From sequence record PP274704.1: a stretch of 64,000 nt of DNA. One strand, written 5' to 3'. This DNA is from Escherichia phage ECp13. The position numbers were made by a program, and so were the translations under genes. Positions 13,633 through 56,996 of this stretch are shown here, piece after piece. The notes under the pieces were generated by a model, which saw nothing but the letters and a program-made list of their open reading frames with translations, was not told the DNA's origin and did no database searches. Numbering within the stretch: position 1 is the stretch's first letter; every line of letters starts with the position of its first letter.

Positions 13633-14124
13633 TTATTCCCAATAATCGAGAGCGAGAGTTACTTCAAAGGTTTGGATTTCATTGTTTGAATCCCAATCTA
13701 ACTGAAGTTCACCCACGTTAGTAGGCCACAGGCCTTTAATTTCGACTTCTTTTGTTACAGTTTTAGCGTCACGAGCATATTGGCGAACAACAGCGCTCTT
13801 TTTATACTCTGCTGGTTTTCCACCAGTAATTTCGTTCCCCTGCCCAGCGGCAATGCTTTGCCAATCAACAAACTTCTGACGAGCATCATGTGCCTCATCG
13901 TTCATTACTGTAACAGTCCAGTCATCGAATGTACGATCGCCTGCTACGTTAATTTTACGGTTCATAAATCCGACTGGAATTTTTTCTACAATACCAGCTG
14001 GTAAAGCAGTGGCTTTACATTGAAACGTAAAATTTTGTCCAAGATAAGAAATTTCTACTTGGAATAAGTTAGGTCGAGCAAAATCACCAGATTCAAACGC
14101 TCGTGTTACATCATCTACAAACAT
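13633..14124 (-). CDS. 19: tail tube protein gp19
   Basis: 163-aa ORF, length identical to T4 gp19. Confidence 0.92.
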   Translation of the reverse strand: MFVDDVTRAFESGDFARPNLFQVEISYLGQNFTFQCKATALPAGIVEKIPVGFMNRKINVAGDRTFDDWTVTVMNDEAHDARQKFVDWQSIAAGQGNEITGGKPAEYKKSAVVRQYARDAKTVTKEVEIKGLWPTNVGELQLDWDSNNEIQTFEVTLALDYWE

Positions 14125-14230: not shown

Positions 14231-14848
14231 TCATTCTAGTAAATCCCAAAGATCTACACTATTTCTTTTTGATTTTTCTCGGTTAGATTCCCAAGTGATT
14301 ATTTCTAAATTATTAATACCGCCAATTATTTCAGCAGGAATTAAATTATCAAAACCGTATTTGATAGATACCTTATGATCAAGTTGGTAAGCACCTTTTG
14401 TACCGCACACTCCTATTTTATCAGCATTTGGCCATTTTGACCAAATTTTCTTATGCTTACGAGTTTCTTTATATACCAATGAAATATATTCACGCATTTC
14501 AGATTTATTTGGGTTCCATCTTGGATGATTTACGCCATGCATACATTCTACTGTTTTTCCTTTATTCGCGGAACCATATGAATTATTGCGCATTTTATCT
14601 TTATGACGGCAATCACGACAAATATCAGTGTTTCTTCCAATGCGTTGGTTATATTCAATTCCACATTTATCGCAACGGCATTTTACATACGCGGTATTAC
14701 CTTTAATGTCTTCAACTTTAACATCAATTTCATAATACCTAAATCCATGTTTAACCGCTCCAAGAGGTGTTAATTTATAACCCTTTGATTGATAATGTTT
14801 AAAATTTGATGGTACAATTTTCACTTTAACAAACTTAGAAATAATCAC
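14231..14848 (-). CDS. freestanding HNH-family endonuclease with N-terminal Zn-ribbon (putative homing endonuclease)
   Basis: 205-aa ORF with GTG start and GAGGAA RBS; CxxC...CxxC region (CRCDKCG...CRDCRH) then HNH/HNN-like core (YQLDHKVSIKYGFDNL...GGINNLEIITWESNREK); AT-rich relative to flanking genes 18 and 19. Confidence 0.7.
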   Translation of the reverse strand: MIISKFVKVKIVPSNFKHYQSKGYKLTPLGAVKHGFRYYEIDVKVEDIKGNTAYVKCRCDKCGIEYNQRIGRNTDICRDCRHKDKMRNNSYGSANKGKTVECMHGVNHPRWNPNKSEMREYISLVYKETRKHKKIWSKWPNADKIGVCGTKGAYQLDHKVSIKYGFDNLIPAEIIGGINNLEIITWESNREKSKRNSVDLWDLLE

Positions 14849-14886: not shown

Positions 14887-16866
14887 TTAACCTGCAAGAC
14901 CAGTTAACTCATCGAAGTCTGCACCAGTAGCAGTTGCGACGAAATTCAAAGTAATATAATTTATACTGCGCGCCGGTTGGATGTAGAATGTTGCAACAAA
15001 CTCATTTCTATCAATTACTGACGGAGTGTTATTTGTTGTATCGCAAACTACACGATATTCATAAATTCCACCGAGAGCTTTAATTCCCTGCAAGTACTGG
15101 GAAGTTTCTGTGCGGAATGATGAACGAGTAAACGCGTTGTTTAATTCGAACAAACGATATTTTGAACTACGTCCGATATTCGTTTTCAACATATTAAACA
15201 GACGACGAACGTTAATACGATCAAATGGAGAAGGAACAGAAGTAGCTGTTTTATCACCATATAATACGTAACCATCACCACCTGTACCAGTTACTGGGTT
15301 GATAGCTTCTTGATATAAACGGTCGCGCTGAGCTTGGCGAGTTTCAATAGCAAGTTTAATAACGTTCAAAATTTGGCCACGATTATAACCAGCTGGAGAC
15401 ATCCAAGTCTGAGAAATGTTATCTGTTCTTGCGCATAAACCAGCAATATCAGCTGCTAATGGAACCCAACGATTTACATCATTATATTTGTCATACTGAT
15501 ACTTGTAGTTACCATCAATTGCTGCGTAGGTTGAACTGATATTAAAGTTATTATCAGTGTATGAACCTGCTGCGGTTCTCCAGTTGACTAAGTTATCAAC
15601 AGCACGAGTTACAGGAATTCCAACTACAGTTTCACGCGGTGGCGAGCACAGTACTAAGCAATCTTGGCGAGCATCCCCAATTGAAACGACGTGTTTTTGG
15701 ACAGTAGATGCTGTTTCTAAAGATTCACCGGCGCAAGAACCCGCAATAAACAACTGAACATCAACAGATTCGCGGTCAGCAAAGAAGTCCCAAGCTTCCA
15801 TCAAATCTCCTGCTGTTACTTCAGCATTTGACGATAATCCACCAGACAGAGTTAAAATTCCAGAGAAGCCTTCTGGCCAGTTTTGTGCAGTTGCAAAAAT
15901 ATATTCTGAACCGCCTTTTGCGAAAAAGTCATCAATGTAGATGTTACTATCGTAAATATCTTTTTCACCACGTTTTGTTGAAAGAACAACGCTTTGAACA
16001 ATAGCATCATTGCGACGAACTATAATAGCGTATTGTGAATCAGTTTGTGGTCCATATCCAAACACTGCTTTGGCAGTAGATGCACGTGTTCCGCCACCTG
16101 GATAAATCGGCAGTAATGCAGAAGCCCCTTTTGCGTAGTCAGCTTTAGATACAATTTCAATTTCAATTTTATCGCCCAACTCGCCTGGATAAAGAGCTAC
16201 TACTCCTGGAATTCCATATTTTTCGAGATTTGCCTGAAAGTCAACAGCTGTCATAGCAGCTTCGGCATTTTCAATTTCAGCTAATAAAATACCAGAATCA
16301 GTAATAATTTTTCCAAGAGTTATTACTGCAGCTAAACCAGATGAAGACGAAGAAATTTCCGCGGTCCAGTTAGAACCTAATTCTGGATATTCGCCTACTT
16401 CTTTCGCTTTAGCGATAATTTTTGCGGTAGGAATATTAATTTTCTTAATTTTTCCATCAGCATCTACTTCGGTAACTTTACATTCTGTTTCAACATCTTC
16501 TGAAACATACTTAACCGTGATTTTATCTCCAACCGCGTAGTTACTACCTGGTGTAGAAATAGTGTATTCAATATTACCGGCAATCGGAGATGAGTTTTTA
16601 GCGGTATCTCTATCGACAGCACGCACAACTCGCAAATCATTTCCGTATTGTAAGAAATTCATTGCAGACATAAAATAGTCAGCAGTTTCAGCTGTAGGTT
16701 GACCAAAAGTATTAACTAAATCTACTTCATTTGTAACCTGTTTAATTTGAAAAGCAGGACCCCACTGGAATTTACCGGCCAAAGCTGCTGTACCAGTAGA
16801 GTTATTAACCACGGTGCTTTGAACCGTAGTTTCTTTGAGCTCAATGCCCGGAGATAATAAAGTCAT
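14887..16866 (-). CDS. 18: tail sheath protein gp18
   Basis: 659-aa ORF, length identical to T4 gp18. Confidence 0.95.
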   Translation of the reverse strand: MTLLSPGIELKETTVQSTVVNNSTGTAALAGKFQWGPAFQIKQVTNEVDLVNTFGQPTAETADYFMSAMNFLQYGNDLRVVRAVDRDTAKNSSPIAGNIEYTISTPGSNYAVGDKITVKYVSEDVETECKVTEVDADGKIKKINIPTAKIIAKAKEVGEYPELGSNWTAEISSSSSGLAAVITLGKIITDSGILLAEIENAEAAMTAVDFQANLEKYGIPGVVALYPGELGDKIEIEIVSKADYAKGASALLPIYPGGGTRASTAKAVFGYGPQTDSQYAIIVRRNDAIVQSVVLSTKRGEKDIYDSNIYIDDFFAKGGSEYIFATAQNWPEGFSGILTLSGGLSSNAEVTAGDLMEAWDFFADRESVDVQLFIAGSCAGESLETASTVQKHVVSIGDARQDCLVLCSPPRETVVGIPVTRAVDNLVNWRTAAGSYTDNNFNISSTYAAIDGNYKYQYDKYNDVNRWVPLAADIAGLCARTDNISQTWMSPAGYNRGQILNVIKLAIETRQAQRDRLYQEAINPVTGTGGDGYVLYGDKTATSVPSPFDRINVRRLFNMLKTNIGRSSKYRLFELNNAFTRSSFRTETSQYLQGIKALGGIYEYRVVCDTTNNTPSVIDRNEFVATFYIQPARSINYITLNFVATATGADFDELTGLAG

Positions 16867-41825: not shown

Positions 41826-42118
41826 TAATGATTCTTTATGCGAAAGTATCATCCATTGAAAATGGATATAAATATGATCAAGAAGCAGCTAAAGCCTTGA
41901 TTGATGATTATGGCGTTTTAACATATTTTGAAGTTGAAAAGGTTTACATTGGCCGTTCATCTTCTCAAGTTAAATTAGTAAAGGAAGACCGTACATTTAA
42001 TACAGTAAATTTTGATTTCTTTATTGAAACAGAAAAAGGTCCTCTTGAATATGATATTTTCAAGAATCCTTTGGGTCTTGAATGTATTAAATATACTTAC
42101 ATTAATGCAGCGTGGTGA
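41822..42118 (+). CDS. hypothetical protein
   Basis: 98-aa ORF, ATGA overlap with upstream gene. Confidence 0.5.
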   Translation: MIMILYAKVSSIENGYKYDQEAAKALIDDYGVLTYFEVEKVYIGRSSSQVKLVKEDRTFNTVNFDFFIETEKGPLEYDIFKNPLGLECIKYTYINAAW

Positions 42119-42120
42119 AA

Positions 42121-42636
42121 ATGAATATTTGTTTAGGTACTACAATTCCGCAGGGCTACGTAATTGATGTCACTACCTGGGAAAATGATGGTGACAACTA
42201 TAAAACTAAAACACTGTTTGACGTAGAAGAGCATGAAATCTTACAATTTCAGTATCTTTTAAAGAAGTTTAAAAGCAGATATTCTAGTACTAAAATTGAG
42301 CGCTATTGTGGTAATGGTTTGTTCAGCGAGCAATCTCTTTTTATTTATGAATACTTGGTTGAAGGACTGTTCTCAGACCAGCTTTATCCAGAATTCATTA
42401 AAAAGGTCTTTCGCATAGAAGTTGATCTTGGTAATAAATCTGAAGAAGATGAAGAACGTGTATTTGACTTATTCTTTGTGAATGGTAATAAAGTGCTTGA
42501 AGGACTTATTAATATTTTAGGTAATGCTTCTGAGTATTATGATTATGATTTTTTGCGTGTAGTTGAGAGTGTTAAATACTCTTATATAGAAGAAGAAATT
42601 GTTTTGCCGACAGTTAAAATGTTTAATTTGCTTTAA
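42121..42636 (+). CDS. hypothetical protein
   Basis: 171 aa from ATG 42121 (track starts at a GTG at 42112); acidic segments. Confidence 0.5.
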   Translation: MNICLGTTIPQGYVIDVTTWENDGDNYKTKTLFDVEEHEILQFQYLLKKFKSRYSSTKIERYCGNGLFSEQSLFIYEYLVEGLFSDQLYPEFIKKVFRIEVDLGNKSEEDEERVFDLFFVNGNKVLEGLINILGNASEYYDYDFLRVVESVKYSYIEEEIVLPTVKMFNLL

Positions 42637-42720
42637 GAATTATTTGTTATTATTAACTCATATCGCACTGATTAATACCCTCTATCATCAAGGGTTCTTG
42701 TTTGAGAGCCTTTGTTAATA

Positions 42721-42781
42721 ATTTTGGTAGAGCGCCTGATTTGGGATCAGGAGGTCCAAGGTTCAAATCCTTGTATGGAGA
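42721..42781 (+). pseudogene. tRNA-Pro(UGG) 3' fragment (5' acceptor and D-arm missing)
   Basis: Intact anticodon arm (CCTGA-tttggga-TCAGG, anticodon TGG), variable loop, T-arm (CAAGG-ttcaaat-CCTTG) and 3' acceptor TATGGAG; no complementary 5' acceptor or D-stem upstream. Confidence 0.5.
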
Positions 42782-42783
42782 CT

Positions 42784-42883
42784 GGAGGCGTGGCAGAGTG
42801 GTTTAATGCACCGGTCTTGAAAACCGGCAGTCGCTCCGGCGACTCATACTAGGTCGTAGGTTCGATCCCTACTGCCTCGACCA
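42784..42883 (+). tRNA. tRNA-Ser(UGA), type II with long variable arm, CCA encoded
   Basis: Acceptor GGAGGCG, D-arm GCA-gagtggtttaa-TGC, anticodon arm CCGGT-cttgaaa-ACCGG (anticodon TGA), variable stem GTCGC/GCGAC, T-arm GTAGG-ttcgatc-CCTAC, 3' TGCCTCG-A-CCA; immediately follows the Pro fragment as in the T4 Pro-Ser pair. Confidence 0.6.
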
Positions 42884-43051
42884 AACAAGAAACCGGGTCG
42901 CTACCGGTAAGTCGTCGGACTGATGTTCCCTGGAGTATAGTTCCTCCCACAGTTTTACTGTGTTCTGGTTCTTTACTATCACAGCTGAAACGGCGCACCG
43001 AATTATCGATTCGAGGAAATATCTTTGCCGTAAGCCGAGTAGCGTTTTTGA

Positions 43052-43143
43052 CGGAACGTTCGGATATGGTCGAGATATGGCCTTTTAAAAATATTGAGTA
43101 GCGTCAACTGCTTAATAACCGGGTTCGAATCCCGGCGTTTCGT
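43052..43143 (+). ncRNA. tRNA-like element (acceptor stem plus canonical T-arm), possible stable small RNA or degenerate tRNA
   Basis: CGGAACG (43052-58) pairs with CGTTTCG (43136-42); T-arm CCGGG-ttcgaat-CCCGG; no canonical anticodon arm; lies in a 630-bp ORF-free stretch. Confidence 0.3.
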
Positions 43144-43195
43144 ACAAACACTTGCCTTAGCAGGTGGAACCCCGACAAGGTTGCCGCAAGGCTTA

Positions 43196-43222
43196 GCCCC
43201 GACCGAAAGGTTGGGGCTTTTT
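43196..43222 (+). terminator. intrinsic terminator closing the tRNA/small-RNA region
   Basis: CCCCGACC-gaaa-GGTTGGGG hairpin followed by CTTTTT. Confidence 0.65.
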
Positions 43223-43224
43223 AG

Positions 43225-43232
43225 TATAAATA
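43225..43232 (+). promoter_or_regulatory. late promoter (TATAAATA) for the IP-like gene at 43273
   Basis: TATAAATA on plus strand, 41 nt upstream of the ATG. Confidence 0.55.
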
Positions 43233-43272
43233 TAGTAGTATATTAAATCCACGAATTAAAACAGGAAATAAG

Positions 43273-43746
43273 ATGAAATCATATGCTCAATTTTTAAATG
43301 AAGCGGTGTTAAATGAAGCATCTAGCACCGAAATTCAAGCCGTCGCAAAAGCAGCCATTGCAGCGGGTAAATATTCCTATAAAGATGCTTCTGACGAATC
43401 ACGATTCCAATTTGCTCGCGACATGAAAGCAGAAGGATTTACGGGAAATGCGGTTAGTATGGCCTGGAAAAGTCTAGTTGCTACTGGCGCTGCTTTTGCA
43501 AAGGCTTCGGGTAAACCTGCTCCTAAAGCAGATCCTAAAGCTGCACAAGAAAAAAATATCGTTAAAGGAATTATCGCTAAATATGAAGCTATCCTTAAAG
43601 AGCTTTTAGTAATCAAAACCGAAGGCCAAAAGTTAGCCCGTGCTTATAGTTTCAAAGATAATCCACATGTTCACTCTCTTGAGTATGTTGAAGACATTCA
43701 AAAAATTATTAAAGACCGCATTTGGTCTGCTAAACAAATCAAATAA
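43273..43746 (+). CDS. internal-protein-like protein with capsid-targeting-like N-terminus
   Basis: 157-aa ORF; MKSYAQFLNE-A resembles the 10-residue T4 IP targeting sequence ending in an L-x-E cleavage motif; late promoter upstream. Confidence 0.6.
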   Translation: MKSYAQFLNEAVLNEASSTEIQAVAKAAIAAGKYSYKDASDESRFQFARDMKAEGFTGNAVSMAWKSLVATGAAFAKASGKPAPKADPKAAQEKNIVKGIIAKYEAILKELLVIKTEGQKLARAYSFKDNPHVHSLEYVEDIQKIIKDRIWSAKQIK

Positions 43747-43755
43747 CATTCTTAA

Positions 43756-43782
43756 CCCCGACCAAAAGGTTGGGGCTTTTTG
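43756..43782 (+). terminator. intrinsic terminator (second copy of the 43196 hairpin)
   Basis: CCCCGACC-aaaa-GGTTGGGG followed by CTTTTT, 10 nt after the IP-like stop. Confidence 0.65.
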
Positions 43783-43914
43783 GTATCTAGGCCTTTCTGG
43801 ACCTCTCTAGGCATCATTTAGTTTATACCCTTTATAATATATTATCCTATCTTTTAATTGCCCCTCCCTGCCCTAGAATTCCCTAAAAATTTTTAAAAAT
43901 TTTTTCACAAAACT

Positions 43915-43944
43915 ATTTACATCCCTGTTCTTCCATGGTACTAT
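43915..43944 (+). promoter_or_regulatory. early sigma70-type promoter (conserved module TGGTACTATACAACTATCAACT)
   Basis: TTTACA at 43916-43921, 17 bp, TACTAT (43939-43944). Confidence 0.6.
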
Positions 43945-43988
43945 ACAACTATCAACTACTGATACAGAAAAACAACTTGGAGAATGAA

Positions 43989-44252
43989 ATGGATAATTAC
44001 GGCGAACTGTTCAACTTCTTTATGAAATGCGTTTCAGAAGATTTCGGTCGTACAGTGAATGATATTAAAGTTATCGGTCCTGACCATCCGATGTTTGAAA
44101 CTTACGCAGTAATGGGTAATGAAGACGGACAGTGGTATACTGTAAAGGTTGTGATTAACATGTTCACAGCAGAAGGTTATGTTAAACTGTCTTCTAAAGT
44201 TTACCACGATAACGACGAAATCGCAGAAGAATATTTCAATAATATGAAATAA
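43989..44252 (+). CDS. hypothetical protein
   Basis: 87 aa from ATG 43989 (GGAGA RBS 9 nt upstream); track ORF starts further upstream at 43935. Confidence 0.5.
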   Translation: MDNYGELFNFFMKCVSEDFGRTVNDIKVIGPDHPMFETYAVMGNEDGQWYTVKVVINMFTAEGYVKLSSKVYHDNDEIAEEYFNNMK

Positions 44253-44282
44253 GTTTACATAGGCTCATGATTGAGATATTAT
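44253..44282 (+). promoter_or_regulatory. early sigma70-type promoter
   Basis: GTTTAC (44253-44258), 18 bp, TATTAT (44277-44282). Confidence 0.55.
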
Positions 44283-44308
44283 GAGCCTACAATTTGAGGA
44301 AAACCGTT

Positions 44309-44839
44309 ATGTCTCTTTATACCGAACTGAATGAAACTTCCGAAAAATCTTTTGATGATATCTTATCAATAATGCAAAAACAGGTATTAGAACAGCTTAG
44401 TGAAGCCGCAAGCAATGGGCACAAGGCTTGTCGAGTCCAAAGCCCACATCGCCGCATGTATGAACGCCCTCTTATTAATTGGCTAGAAAGCGAAGGTCTT
44501 ACAGTTAAGATTTGCCCTGCTAAATTTGATGTCCCACGTATTCTTAATATTTACTGGGATAAACCGGCTGAGAAATCGGTTGAGAAAAGTGACCCTTGGG
44601 TTGTTAATGTAAAAACATGTGACAGTGGATGCTCACTTGAGGTGTCTGCTGTAATTAAAGGCACTCATGGTGAAAAATCATGGGGTTGGCCTAGTAAAGA
44701 TAAAGAAATCGTGTTAAGTGTAAAAGCTACTAGTATTAGTACTCCTATAGCTAAAAGCATTATCGCCGCCGCCGTTGAAGAAGCTGAACGAATTTGTAAA
44801 ATTAAAAATAGTTTACATCTCTTAAATAGTATGATATAA
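44309..44839 (+). CDS. hypothetical protein
   Basis: 176 aa from ATG 44309 (RBS GAGGAA); track ORF begins at a TTG at 44294. Confidence 0.5.
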   Translation: MSLYTELNETSEKSFDDILSIMQKQVLEQLSEAASNGHKACRVQSPHRRMYERPLINWLESEGLTVKICPAKFDVPRILNIYWDKPAEKSVEKSDPWVVNVKTCDSGCSLEVSAVIKGTHGEKSWGWPSKDKEIVLSVKATSISTPIAKSIIAAAVEEAERICKIKNSLHLLNSMI

Positions 44840-44881
44840 TTCTTCCACAGATTTTATTTTTAATCAACCTAAGGAAATACT

Positions 44882-56542: not shown

Positions 56543-56728
56543 ATGACAAGTGAGCAGGCTTTTAAATTAAGAGAATTAATTGAGATGTATAGTAAAGCTG
56601 TTCATACATCAACAGTTATTGATGAATCAGCTTTCTCTGGATATGCTAACAAGATTAAATATAAAACTCTTATGGAAGAAGCTAAAGTAAATCTTGATTC
56701 TTATATTGAAACTTTAATTGGTGAATAA
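56543..56728 (+). CDS. small helical protein (repeated ~60-aa family)
   Basis: 61-aa ORF MTSEQAFKLRELIEMYSKAV... Confidence 0.5.
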   Translation: MTSEQAFKLRELIEMYSKAVHTSTVIDESAFSGYANKIKYKTLMEEAKVNLDSYIETLIGE

Positions 56729-56729
56729 T

Positions 56730-56996
56730 GTGAGCTTTCCGAAATTAGAAGTAGGTGATTTAGTCTTAACAAAATTGTGGAATGATGCTCAATCAGTAGA
56801 AATCTGCCAATATCGTGGAGCAACAGGTAATTTGATGTACACGATTTATAATCCAGAAATTTTGTTAGAGTGTCATTTGGAACGCTTTATAAAAGACACT
56901 GATAGTATGCCTTATAGTGTATCGATTGTGCGTAAATCTGATACAAAGGAATACTCTAAAATTTTAGAACAAATTTATGTCAGTAAAAAGGATTAA
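56730..56996 (+). CDS. hypothetical protein (non-ATG start)
   Basis: Track ORF from TTG 56718; GTG at 56730 with GGTGA RBS is the likelier start, about 88 aa. Confidence 0.4.
   Translation: MSFPKLEVGDLVLTKLWNDAQSVEICQYRGATGNLMYTIYNPEILLECHLERFIKDTDSMPYSVSIVRKSDTKEYSKILEQIYVSKKD

Follow-up and report, generated by a model that had tools for sequence, protein, structure and literature searches.

A Tequatrovirus tRNA locus cut down to a tRNA-Pro stump and a Ser::Arg hybrid gene, probably by two homology-independent deletions

The tRNA locus of Escherichia phage ECp13 (PP274704.1) contains no intact tRNA gene: its cluster is cut down to a stump of tRNA-Pro and a hybrid of tRNA-Ser and tRNA-Arg. 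We consider it highly probable that this is the remnant of a ten-gene T-even operon gutted by two recent deletions that did not depend on homology, and that the phage would make no canonical tRNA and depend on the tRNAs of its host. The analysis covered a window of 64,000 nucleotides (the whole stretch of DNA, hereafter 64 kb), in which ARAGORN, run with default settings, called zero tRNA genes anywhere. A tRNA finder was the check that the first-pass annotation had proposed for its truncated tRNA-Pro, and the default run indeed called neither a complete tRNA-Pro nor any other tRNA. The same annotation had counted about one intact gene, a tRNA-Ser; zero intact genes remain, the Ser gene being fused after its nt 65, at position 42849, to nt 42–73 and the CCA of tRNA-Arg.

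The window is part of a Tequatrovirus genome with T4-type gene content. Over 22 kb around the tRNA locus, it is 98.3% identical to the Shigella/Escherichia phages KNP5 and KNP1 and 98.4% identical to Sfk20. The 27.8 kb upstream of the scar are colinear with Sfk20 (98.3%) without large indels, so the scar is a local event. The tRNA locus of Sfk20 holds ten genes (Gln, Leu, Gly, Pro, Ser, Thr, Met, Tyr, Asn and Arg), 10/10 of which are called by ARAGORN and nine of which score 59–74 bits with the Rfam tRNA model; the same ten tRNAs are present in KNP5, sb2 and one IMG/VR relative. ARAGORN calls ten tRNA genes each in Sfk20, KNP5 and locus L007, versus none in the window. Position, leader, rnaD, rnaC and terminator of the T2L/Sfk20-type operon are all conserved in the window, and the intact tRNA array is missing. 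The parental cluster was of the ten-gene Sfk20/KNP5 type, near the T2L type, and not of the eight-gene T4 type.

The anatomy of the locus was obtained by BLAST of the window against Sfk20 (locus L001), which returned four colinear pieces and thereby exact breakpoints.

Piece 1: window 42500–42723, Sfk20 L001 1401–1624, 98.7% identity
Piece 2: window 42723–42848, Sfk20 L001 1889–2014, 126/126 identical, and likewise in T4
Piece 3: window 42849–42884, Sfk20 L001 2417–2452, 36/36 identical
Piece 4: window 42887–43400, Sfk20 L001 2817–3330, 99.6% identity

The features of the locus are as follows.

42121–42636: upstream 171-aa ORF (phrog_2290)
42637..42722, + strand: native leader, once before tRNA-Gln, now abutting the tRNA-Pro remnant
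42723..42724: junction J1 (deletion 1), from the BLAST pieces and three-way print-outs
42723..42781, + strand: pseudo-tRNA-Pro(UGG), nt 16–74, 59/59 identical to Sfk20 and T4
42784..42848, + strand: tRNA-Ser(UGA) nt 1–65, 100% identical to Sfk20 and T4
42848..42849: junction J2 (deletion 2), from the BLAST pieces and sequence print-outs
42849..42883, + strand: tRNA-Arg(UCU) nt 42–73 and encoded CCA, identical to Sfk20
42784..42883, + strand: Ser::Arg hybrid tRNA-like gene, 97 nt plus CCA
~42885..42999, + strand: rnaD (species 2 stable RNA), apparently intact, aligned with T4 rnaD
43006..43144, + strand: rnaC (species 1 stable RNA), intact, 137/139 identical to T4
43195..43223, + strand: intrinsic-terminator-like hairpin (43195–43218) and T-run closing the RNA operon

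The leader sequence is common to Sfk20, KNP5, sb2, T4 and the IMG/VR relative, and a CT spacer separates the tRNA-Pro remnant from the start of tRNA-Ser. The Ser piece runs from the 5' acceptor strand through the D-arm, the anticodon arm and the long variable stem-loop into the T-stem, of which it keeps the first 3 nt. The Arg piece starts 2 nt before the end of the anticodon stem and continues through variable loop, T-arm and 3' acceptor strand to the discriminator A and the CCA. Further downstream, rnaD matches its T4 counterpart at the ends and has diverged in the centre, and the terminator-like hairpin has a 10-bp stem (7 GC pairs) ahead of TTTTT. In its 3' half, rnaC itself resembles a tRNA and contains GGTTCGAATCC, the same core as in the preferred SegB site of tRNA-Asn; with its threshold lowered, ARAGORN reports 43051–43145 as a tRNA whose anticodon has 4 bases, and Rfam reports a weak tRNA-Sec match.

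Deletion 1 removed 264 bp (Sfk20 L001 1625–1888), and with them tRNA-Gln, Leu, Gly and nt 1–15 of tRNA-Pro; its start may be read as exactly nt 1 of tRNA-Gln. Deletion 2, a second event that looks independent of the first, removed 402 bp (Sfk20 L001 2015–2416) comprising nt 66–87 of tRNA-Ser (its last 22 nt), tRNA-Thr, Met, Tyr and Asn, and nt 1–41 of tRNA-Arg. The first-pass annotation had inferred one breakpoint inside tRNA-Pro that took the upstream tRNAs together with segB. Its breakpoint stands, located between nt 15 and 16, as does the removal of Gln, Leu and Gly; the loss of segB finds no support, and the second deletion had escaped it.

At J1, ...TTAATAAT(T) is joined to (T)TTGGTAGAGC, with a microhomology of 1 nt (the ambiguous T). 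At J2, ...GACTCATA is joined to CTAGGTCGTAGG, with a microhomology of 0 nt. The sequences around all four breakpoints are alike in Sfk20, KNP5, sb2 and T4, and in the IMG/VR relative wherever its anchor matched; the reading of the junctions is therefore independent of the parent chosen. Homologous blocks were available nearby, namely TTGGTA in the D-loops of Gln and Pro and TAGGTTC in the T-arms of Ser and Arg, and neither junction used them. Because only 0–1 nt are shared and these blocks were bypassed, the joins are illegitimate and not unequal crossovers between tRNA genes, and we ruled out homologous tRNA–tRNA recombination. Ligation at a restriction site was considered for J2, whose right side coincides with the AvrII cut position of CCTAGG, and was rejected since the left side has no compatible site. 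An ancestrally small cluster was also ruled out, the fragments being internal pieces of intact genes at 100% identity.

A third gap relative to Sfk20 (364 bp, at 42884..42887) lies just after the hybrid and corresponds to a missing 351-bp ORF of 116 aa (Sfk20 L001 2468–2818). This ORF, named trna.2 in the T2L record and assigned to phrog_3355 (unknown function), follows tRNA-Arg in Sfk20, KNP5 and T2L and is absent from the window, sb2 and UFV13. Positions 42849–43784 of the window are colinear with sb2, whose junction at the site of the missing ORF is the same as here. We therefore rejected this gap as part of the scar and regard it as a natural presence/absence polymorphism shared with sb2 and UFV13. 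In Sfk20, a TTAAG direct repeat borders the ORF on both sides. Neither this 116-aa ORF nor the ORFs flanking the locus could be given a function from Pfam and PHROGs scans.

The upstream side of the operon varies as well. In a comparison of 42094–42617 with sb2 (L033), sb2 and T4 have, in place of the 171-aa ORF (phrog_2290), another ORF of 95 aa, named trna.2 in the T4 record; close relatives are thus mosaic at the upstream edge of the tRNA operon as well. Other differences from Sfk20 were noted elsewhere in the window. Between the tail-tube gene (13633–14124) and the tail-sheath gene (14887–16866), where Sfk20 has 8 bp, the window carries a 205-aa ORF (14231–14848, - strand) that matches phrog_5104 (unknown function) and has no match in a Pfam scan. 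Its C-terminus shows, by eye, an HNH-like pattern (DHKVSI...N...N), and it may be a free-standing mobile endonuclease gene. Positions 56544–56986 (441 bp, versus 13 bp in Sfk20) hold two small ORFs of 61 and 92 aa. Downstream of a 157-aa ORF (43273–43746), positions 43781–44863 differ from Sfk20 by replacement-type indels (gaps of ~640 bp, and ~550 versus 370 bp) with the small-ORF content typical of T-even hypervariable regions.

The stump of tRNA-Pro(UGG) was described correctly as 5'-truncated in the first-pass annotation: 42723–42781 corresponds to nt 16–74, at 100% identity to Sfk20 and T4, and the leader of tRNA-Gln lies directly upstream. Its anticodon arm and T-arm are identical to those of the intact gene. 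The 5' strand of the acceptor (nt 1–7) is deleted, and the leader offers CUUUGUU in its place, with 3 Watson–Crick pairs, 3 GU pairs and 1 mismatch. The 5' strand of the D-stem, GCUC, is deleted too, and the leader's UAAU is unable to pair with GAGC. The Rfam tRNA model aligns the remnant (42710–42781) with a broken D-stem and a GU-rich pseudo-acceptor, at 30.3 bits, against a gathering score of 29 and 66.8 bits for the intact gene. ARAGORN reports it only with the lowered threshold of its -ps option. In minimum-free-energy folds, intact tRNA-Pro, tRNA-Ser and tRNA-Arg form cloverleaves, and the Pro stump and the Ser::Arg hybrid do not.

The Ser::Arg hybrid is a precisely defined natural fusion of two tRNA genes. 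It contains the D, anticodon, variable and T arms once each, and its acceptor strands pair at 6/7 positions because the acceptor stems of Ser and Arg are nearly alike. The exception is a G1.G72 mismatch, next to discriminator A73, where native tRNA-Ser has G1-C72 and G73. The variable region measures 28 nt versus 18 in native Ser, the extra ten being unpaired. With the Rfam tRNA model, the hybrid (42784–42880) scores 49.4 bits, versus 62.6 for Ser and 68.1 for Arg. Its cloverleaf has a predicted energy of -32.9 kcal/mol, 3 kcal/mol above the minimum of -35.9 kcal/mol, and the acceptor helix accounts for ~6% of the ensemble; in a competing hairpin, the Arg-derived GUCGU rivals the 5' strand of the variable stem for GGCGAC. 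ARAGORN does not call the hybrid by default and, at a much lowered threshold, misreads it as tRNA-Phe. From these structure predictions, the hybrid is probably non-functional.

Several features would nevertheless suit a working tRNA-Ser(UGA)-like molecule. On that view, deletion 2 would have survived by keeping a tRNA that can be folded and processed while shedding five others, and the phage would retain a single functional tRNA, albeit one whose 28-nt variable region is abnormal. No cloverleaf element is missing or duplicated, Arg contributes an encoded CCA, the Rfam score is well over the threshold of 29, and the cloverleaf lies close in energy to the minimum. The hybrid also retains G2-C71, A3-U70, C11-G24 and the long variable stem, which we take to be identity elements for SerRS. 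Of 45 ordered gene pairs, only Ser-5'/Arg-3' has acceptor strands that match at 6/7 positions or more, and an arm-complete, acceptor-compatible hybrid arises in only 0.22% of random endpoint pairs, a rarity that hints at selection or at a register-preserving mechanism. Yet this statistic is post hoc, and the sister deletion yielded a plainly dead Pro stump. The ten additional unpaired nucleotides fall between the variable stem and the T-stem, where, as Asahara, Himeno and colleagues reportedly found, geometry sets the orientation of the arm that SerRS reads. Together with the altered first pair and discriminator, the hairpin competition that leaves a non-cloverleaf minimum, and the missing or mistaken ARAGORN calls, these points make a working hybrid unlikely.

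An artefact of assembly or sequencing, or a deletion strain engineered or passaged in the laboratory, would be another reading of the scar. Its two blunt, microhomology-free junctions lie within 600 bp and occur in no other public sequence searched, and the possible start of deletion 1 at nt 1 of tRNA-Gln could suggest design. Assemblers, however, collapse repeats, and neither J1 nor J2 has one; the remaining three breakpoints interrupt tRNA genes where no designer would have put them, and elsewhere in the window only ordinary T-even polymorphisms set it apart from its nearest relatives. If the loss arose spontaneously during laboratory propagation, the deletions would be no less real and of the same kind. 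We judge an unnatural origin very improbable. The history implied by the first-pass annotation is scarcely tenable, namely a single breakpoint in Pro that removed the upstream tRNAs and segB from a T4-type eight-gene cluster and left Ser intact. It has in its favour a real breakpoint in Pro and the real loss of Gln, Leu and Gly. Against it, Ser is fused to Arg, and what is left of Arg is, together with its flanks, 100% identical to ten-gene clusters that have no segB. That annotation was right in giving T4 eight tRNAs here; the segB of T4 is found between tRNA-Ile and tRNA-Arg, which puts it transcriptionally downstream of Pro and not, as had been supposed, on the Gln side.

These arguments leave the gutting of a ten-gene operon by two homology-independent deletions as the preferred explanation, and the scar was sought in other genomes. 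The 23-mers across J1 and across J2 were each absent from IMG/VR, JGI metagenome contigs and GTDB genome contigs, and no phage record spanned the scar in fewer than three BLAST pieces. A query made of the flanks only found both flanks within ~635 bp of each other in 0/757 related phage records. A collapsed cluster of this kind is thus unique in the 757-record phage collection. Neither a Tequatrovirus devoid of tRNAs nor this hybrid came up in literature searches, and the sampled Tequatroviruses keep 7–11 tRNA genes. Five IMG/VR genomes of ~170 kb carry only Met/Arg or Met/Asn/Arg at the locus downstream of a homologue of the 171-aa ORF, so the number of tRNAs at this site varies in nature.

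Loss of segB was also suggested by the first-pass annotation, and nothing in the sequences compared indicates it. The gene is absent from the tRNA cluster in the closest relatives (Sfk20, KNP5 and sb2 have no such annotation there), and a tblastn search of the window with T4 SegB returned no match at E<=10. The enzyme itself could still have acted on the locus from another phage. SegB recognizes a 27-bp site starting at GGTTCRANTCC and, in the segB-less cluster of T2L, cuts nine of the ten tRNA genes at their 3' ends; in modified T2L DNA, it prefers the Asn site, with the Ser site second (PMC2330249). Its breaks remodel the tRNA locus through gene conversion and segmental amplification (PMC13096335). 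In Sfk20, the GGTTCRANTCC core is found in rnaC and in eight tRNA genes (Gln, Leu, Pro, Ser, Thr, Met, Tyr and Asn), and Arg has the variant GGTTCGATCCC. Of these, just three remain in the window: the copies in Pro (42760) and rnaC (43122) and the variant in Arg (42859). Deletion 1 takes out the Gln, Leu and Gly sites. Deletion 2 begins at the first G of the Ser motif and takes out the Ser, Met, Tyr and Asn sites. Together, the deletions affect seven of the nine genes for which a site is reported, with the preferred Asn and Ser sites among them.

This positional evidence makes it plausible, if doubtful, that the deletions were caused by breaks made by SegB from a co-infecting segB+ phage. Multiple cuts in a mixed infection, followed by rejoining without a template, would produce two adjacent blunt deletions with a 126-bp fragment surviving between them. 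Against SegB as the cause, the Pro site, the Arg site and the rnaC copy of the core survived both deletions. The geometry of the cut sites was dropped as a test: with sites recurring about every 85 bp, any endpoint lies near one, and the geometry does not discriminate. That the deletions are the footprint of untemplated repair of SegB breaks amounting to escape of the target, with the hybrid retained as a processed and used tRNA, appears improbable.

Whatever made the breaks, junctions of 0–1 nt point to end-joining or another illegitimate join after double-strand breaks, and not to a homologous crossover. Two such deletions, of 264 and 402 bp, would have gutted the Gln-Leu-Gly-Pro-Ser-Thr-Met-Tyr-Asn-Arg operon. 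What remains of it would still be transcribed from upstream promoters, and rnaD and rnaC would presumably still be made. There would be no canonical tRNA output: the Pro stump would be nothing but a 5' leader, and the hybrid product would most likely misfold and be poorly charged or uncharged. The phage would then rely on host tRNAs, a loss that would be tolerated because the tRNA genes of T-even phages are dispensable.

For annotation, we recommend that no functional tRNA gene be called in this interval. The locus matters beyond its annotation, since T-even tRNA genes are now thought to be partly spare parts against host defences that cleave tRNAs, as with the tRNA-Tyr of T6, which counters Septu. 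A wild-type-like Tequatrovirus without an intact cluster tRNA, compared with near-isogenic relatives carrying ten, would provide a direct test of the spare-parts idea, and the same comparison would allow the translational cost of tRNA loss to be measured. If SegB made the breaks, homing endonucleases would erode their target loci besides converting or amplifying them. If, in addition, the reading as target escape were true, this would be the first natural case of a phage evading a homing endonuclease by deleting its targets; otherwise, it is an ordinary loss of dispensable genes.

Deletions in this region have a precedent in the psu-b series of spontaneous T4 mutants, reportedly described by Wilson, Kim and Abelson. 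Like the present phage, the psu-b mutants and a T6 mutant engineered to lack the tRNA-rich region are viable T-even phages that miss some or all genes of the same cluster. Such phages tolerate the loss but pay for it with a reduced burst or with weaker resistance to defences that cleave tRNAs. The T6 mutant is more sensitive to the Septu defence (PMC13096335). The window differs from these mutants in having an Sfk20/KNP5-like ten-gene parent and two microhomology-free junctions, and in retaining a Pro stump and a hybrid. It shares with the T2L/Sfk20/KNP5 operon the slot between the phrog_2290 ORF and rnaD/rnaC, and its tRNA pieces are 100% identical to those of that operon, whereas it has none of the ten tRNAs intact and lacks the 116-aa ORF. 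T4-like phages of other genera have naturally small sets of 2–3 tRNAs at the same syntenic locus, but their tRNA genes are intact and they are distant relatives (43% protein identity), while the window carries a fresh scar. Compared with the T-even clusters targeted by SegB, its parent cluster is segB-less and of the type that SegB cuts at most tRNA 3' ends; the documented outcomes of SegB cleavage are homology-dependent (homing and uvsX/uvsY-dependent amplification), in contrast to the homology-free deletion seen here in a window with no segB gene. We conclude that the scar is a new example of a known process, the loss of dispensable T-even tRNA genes by deletion, and that it is rare but ordinary.
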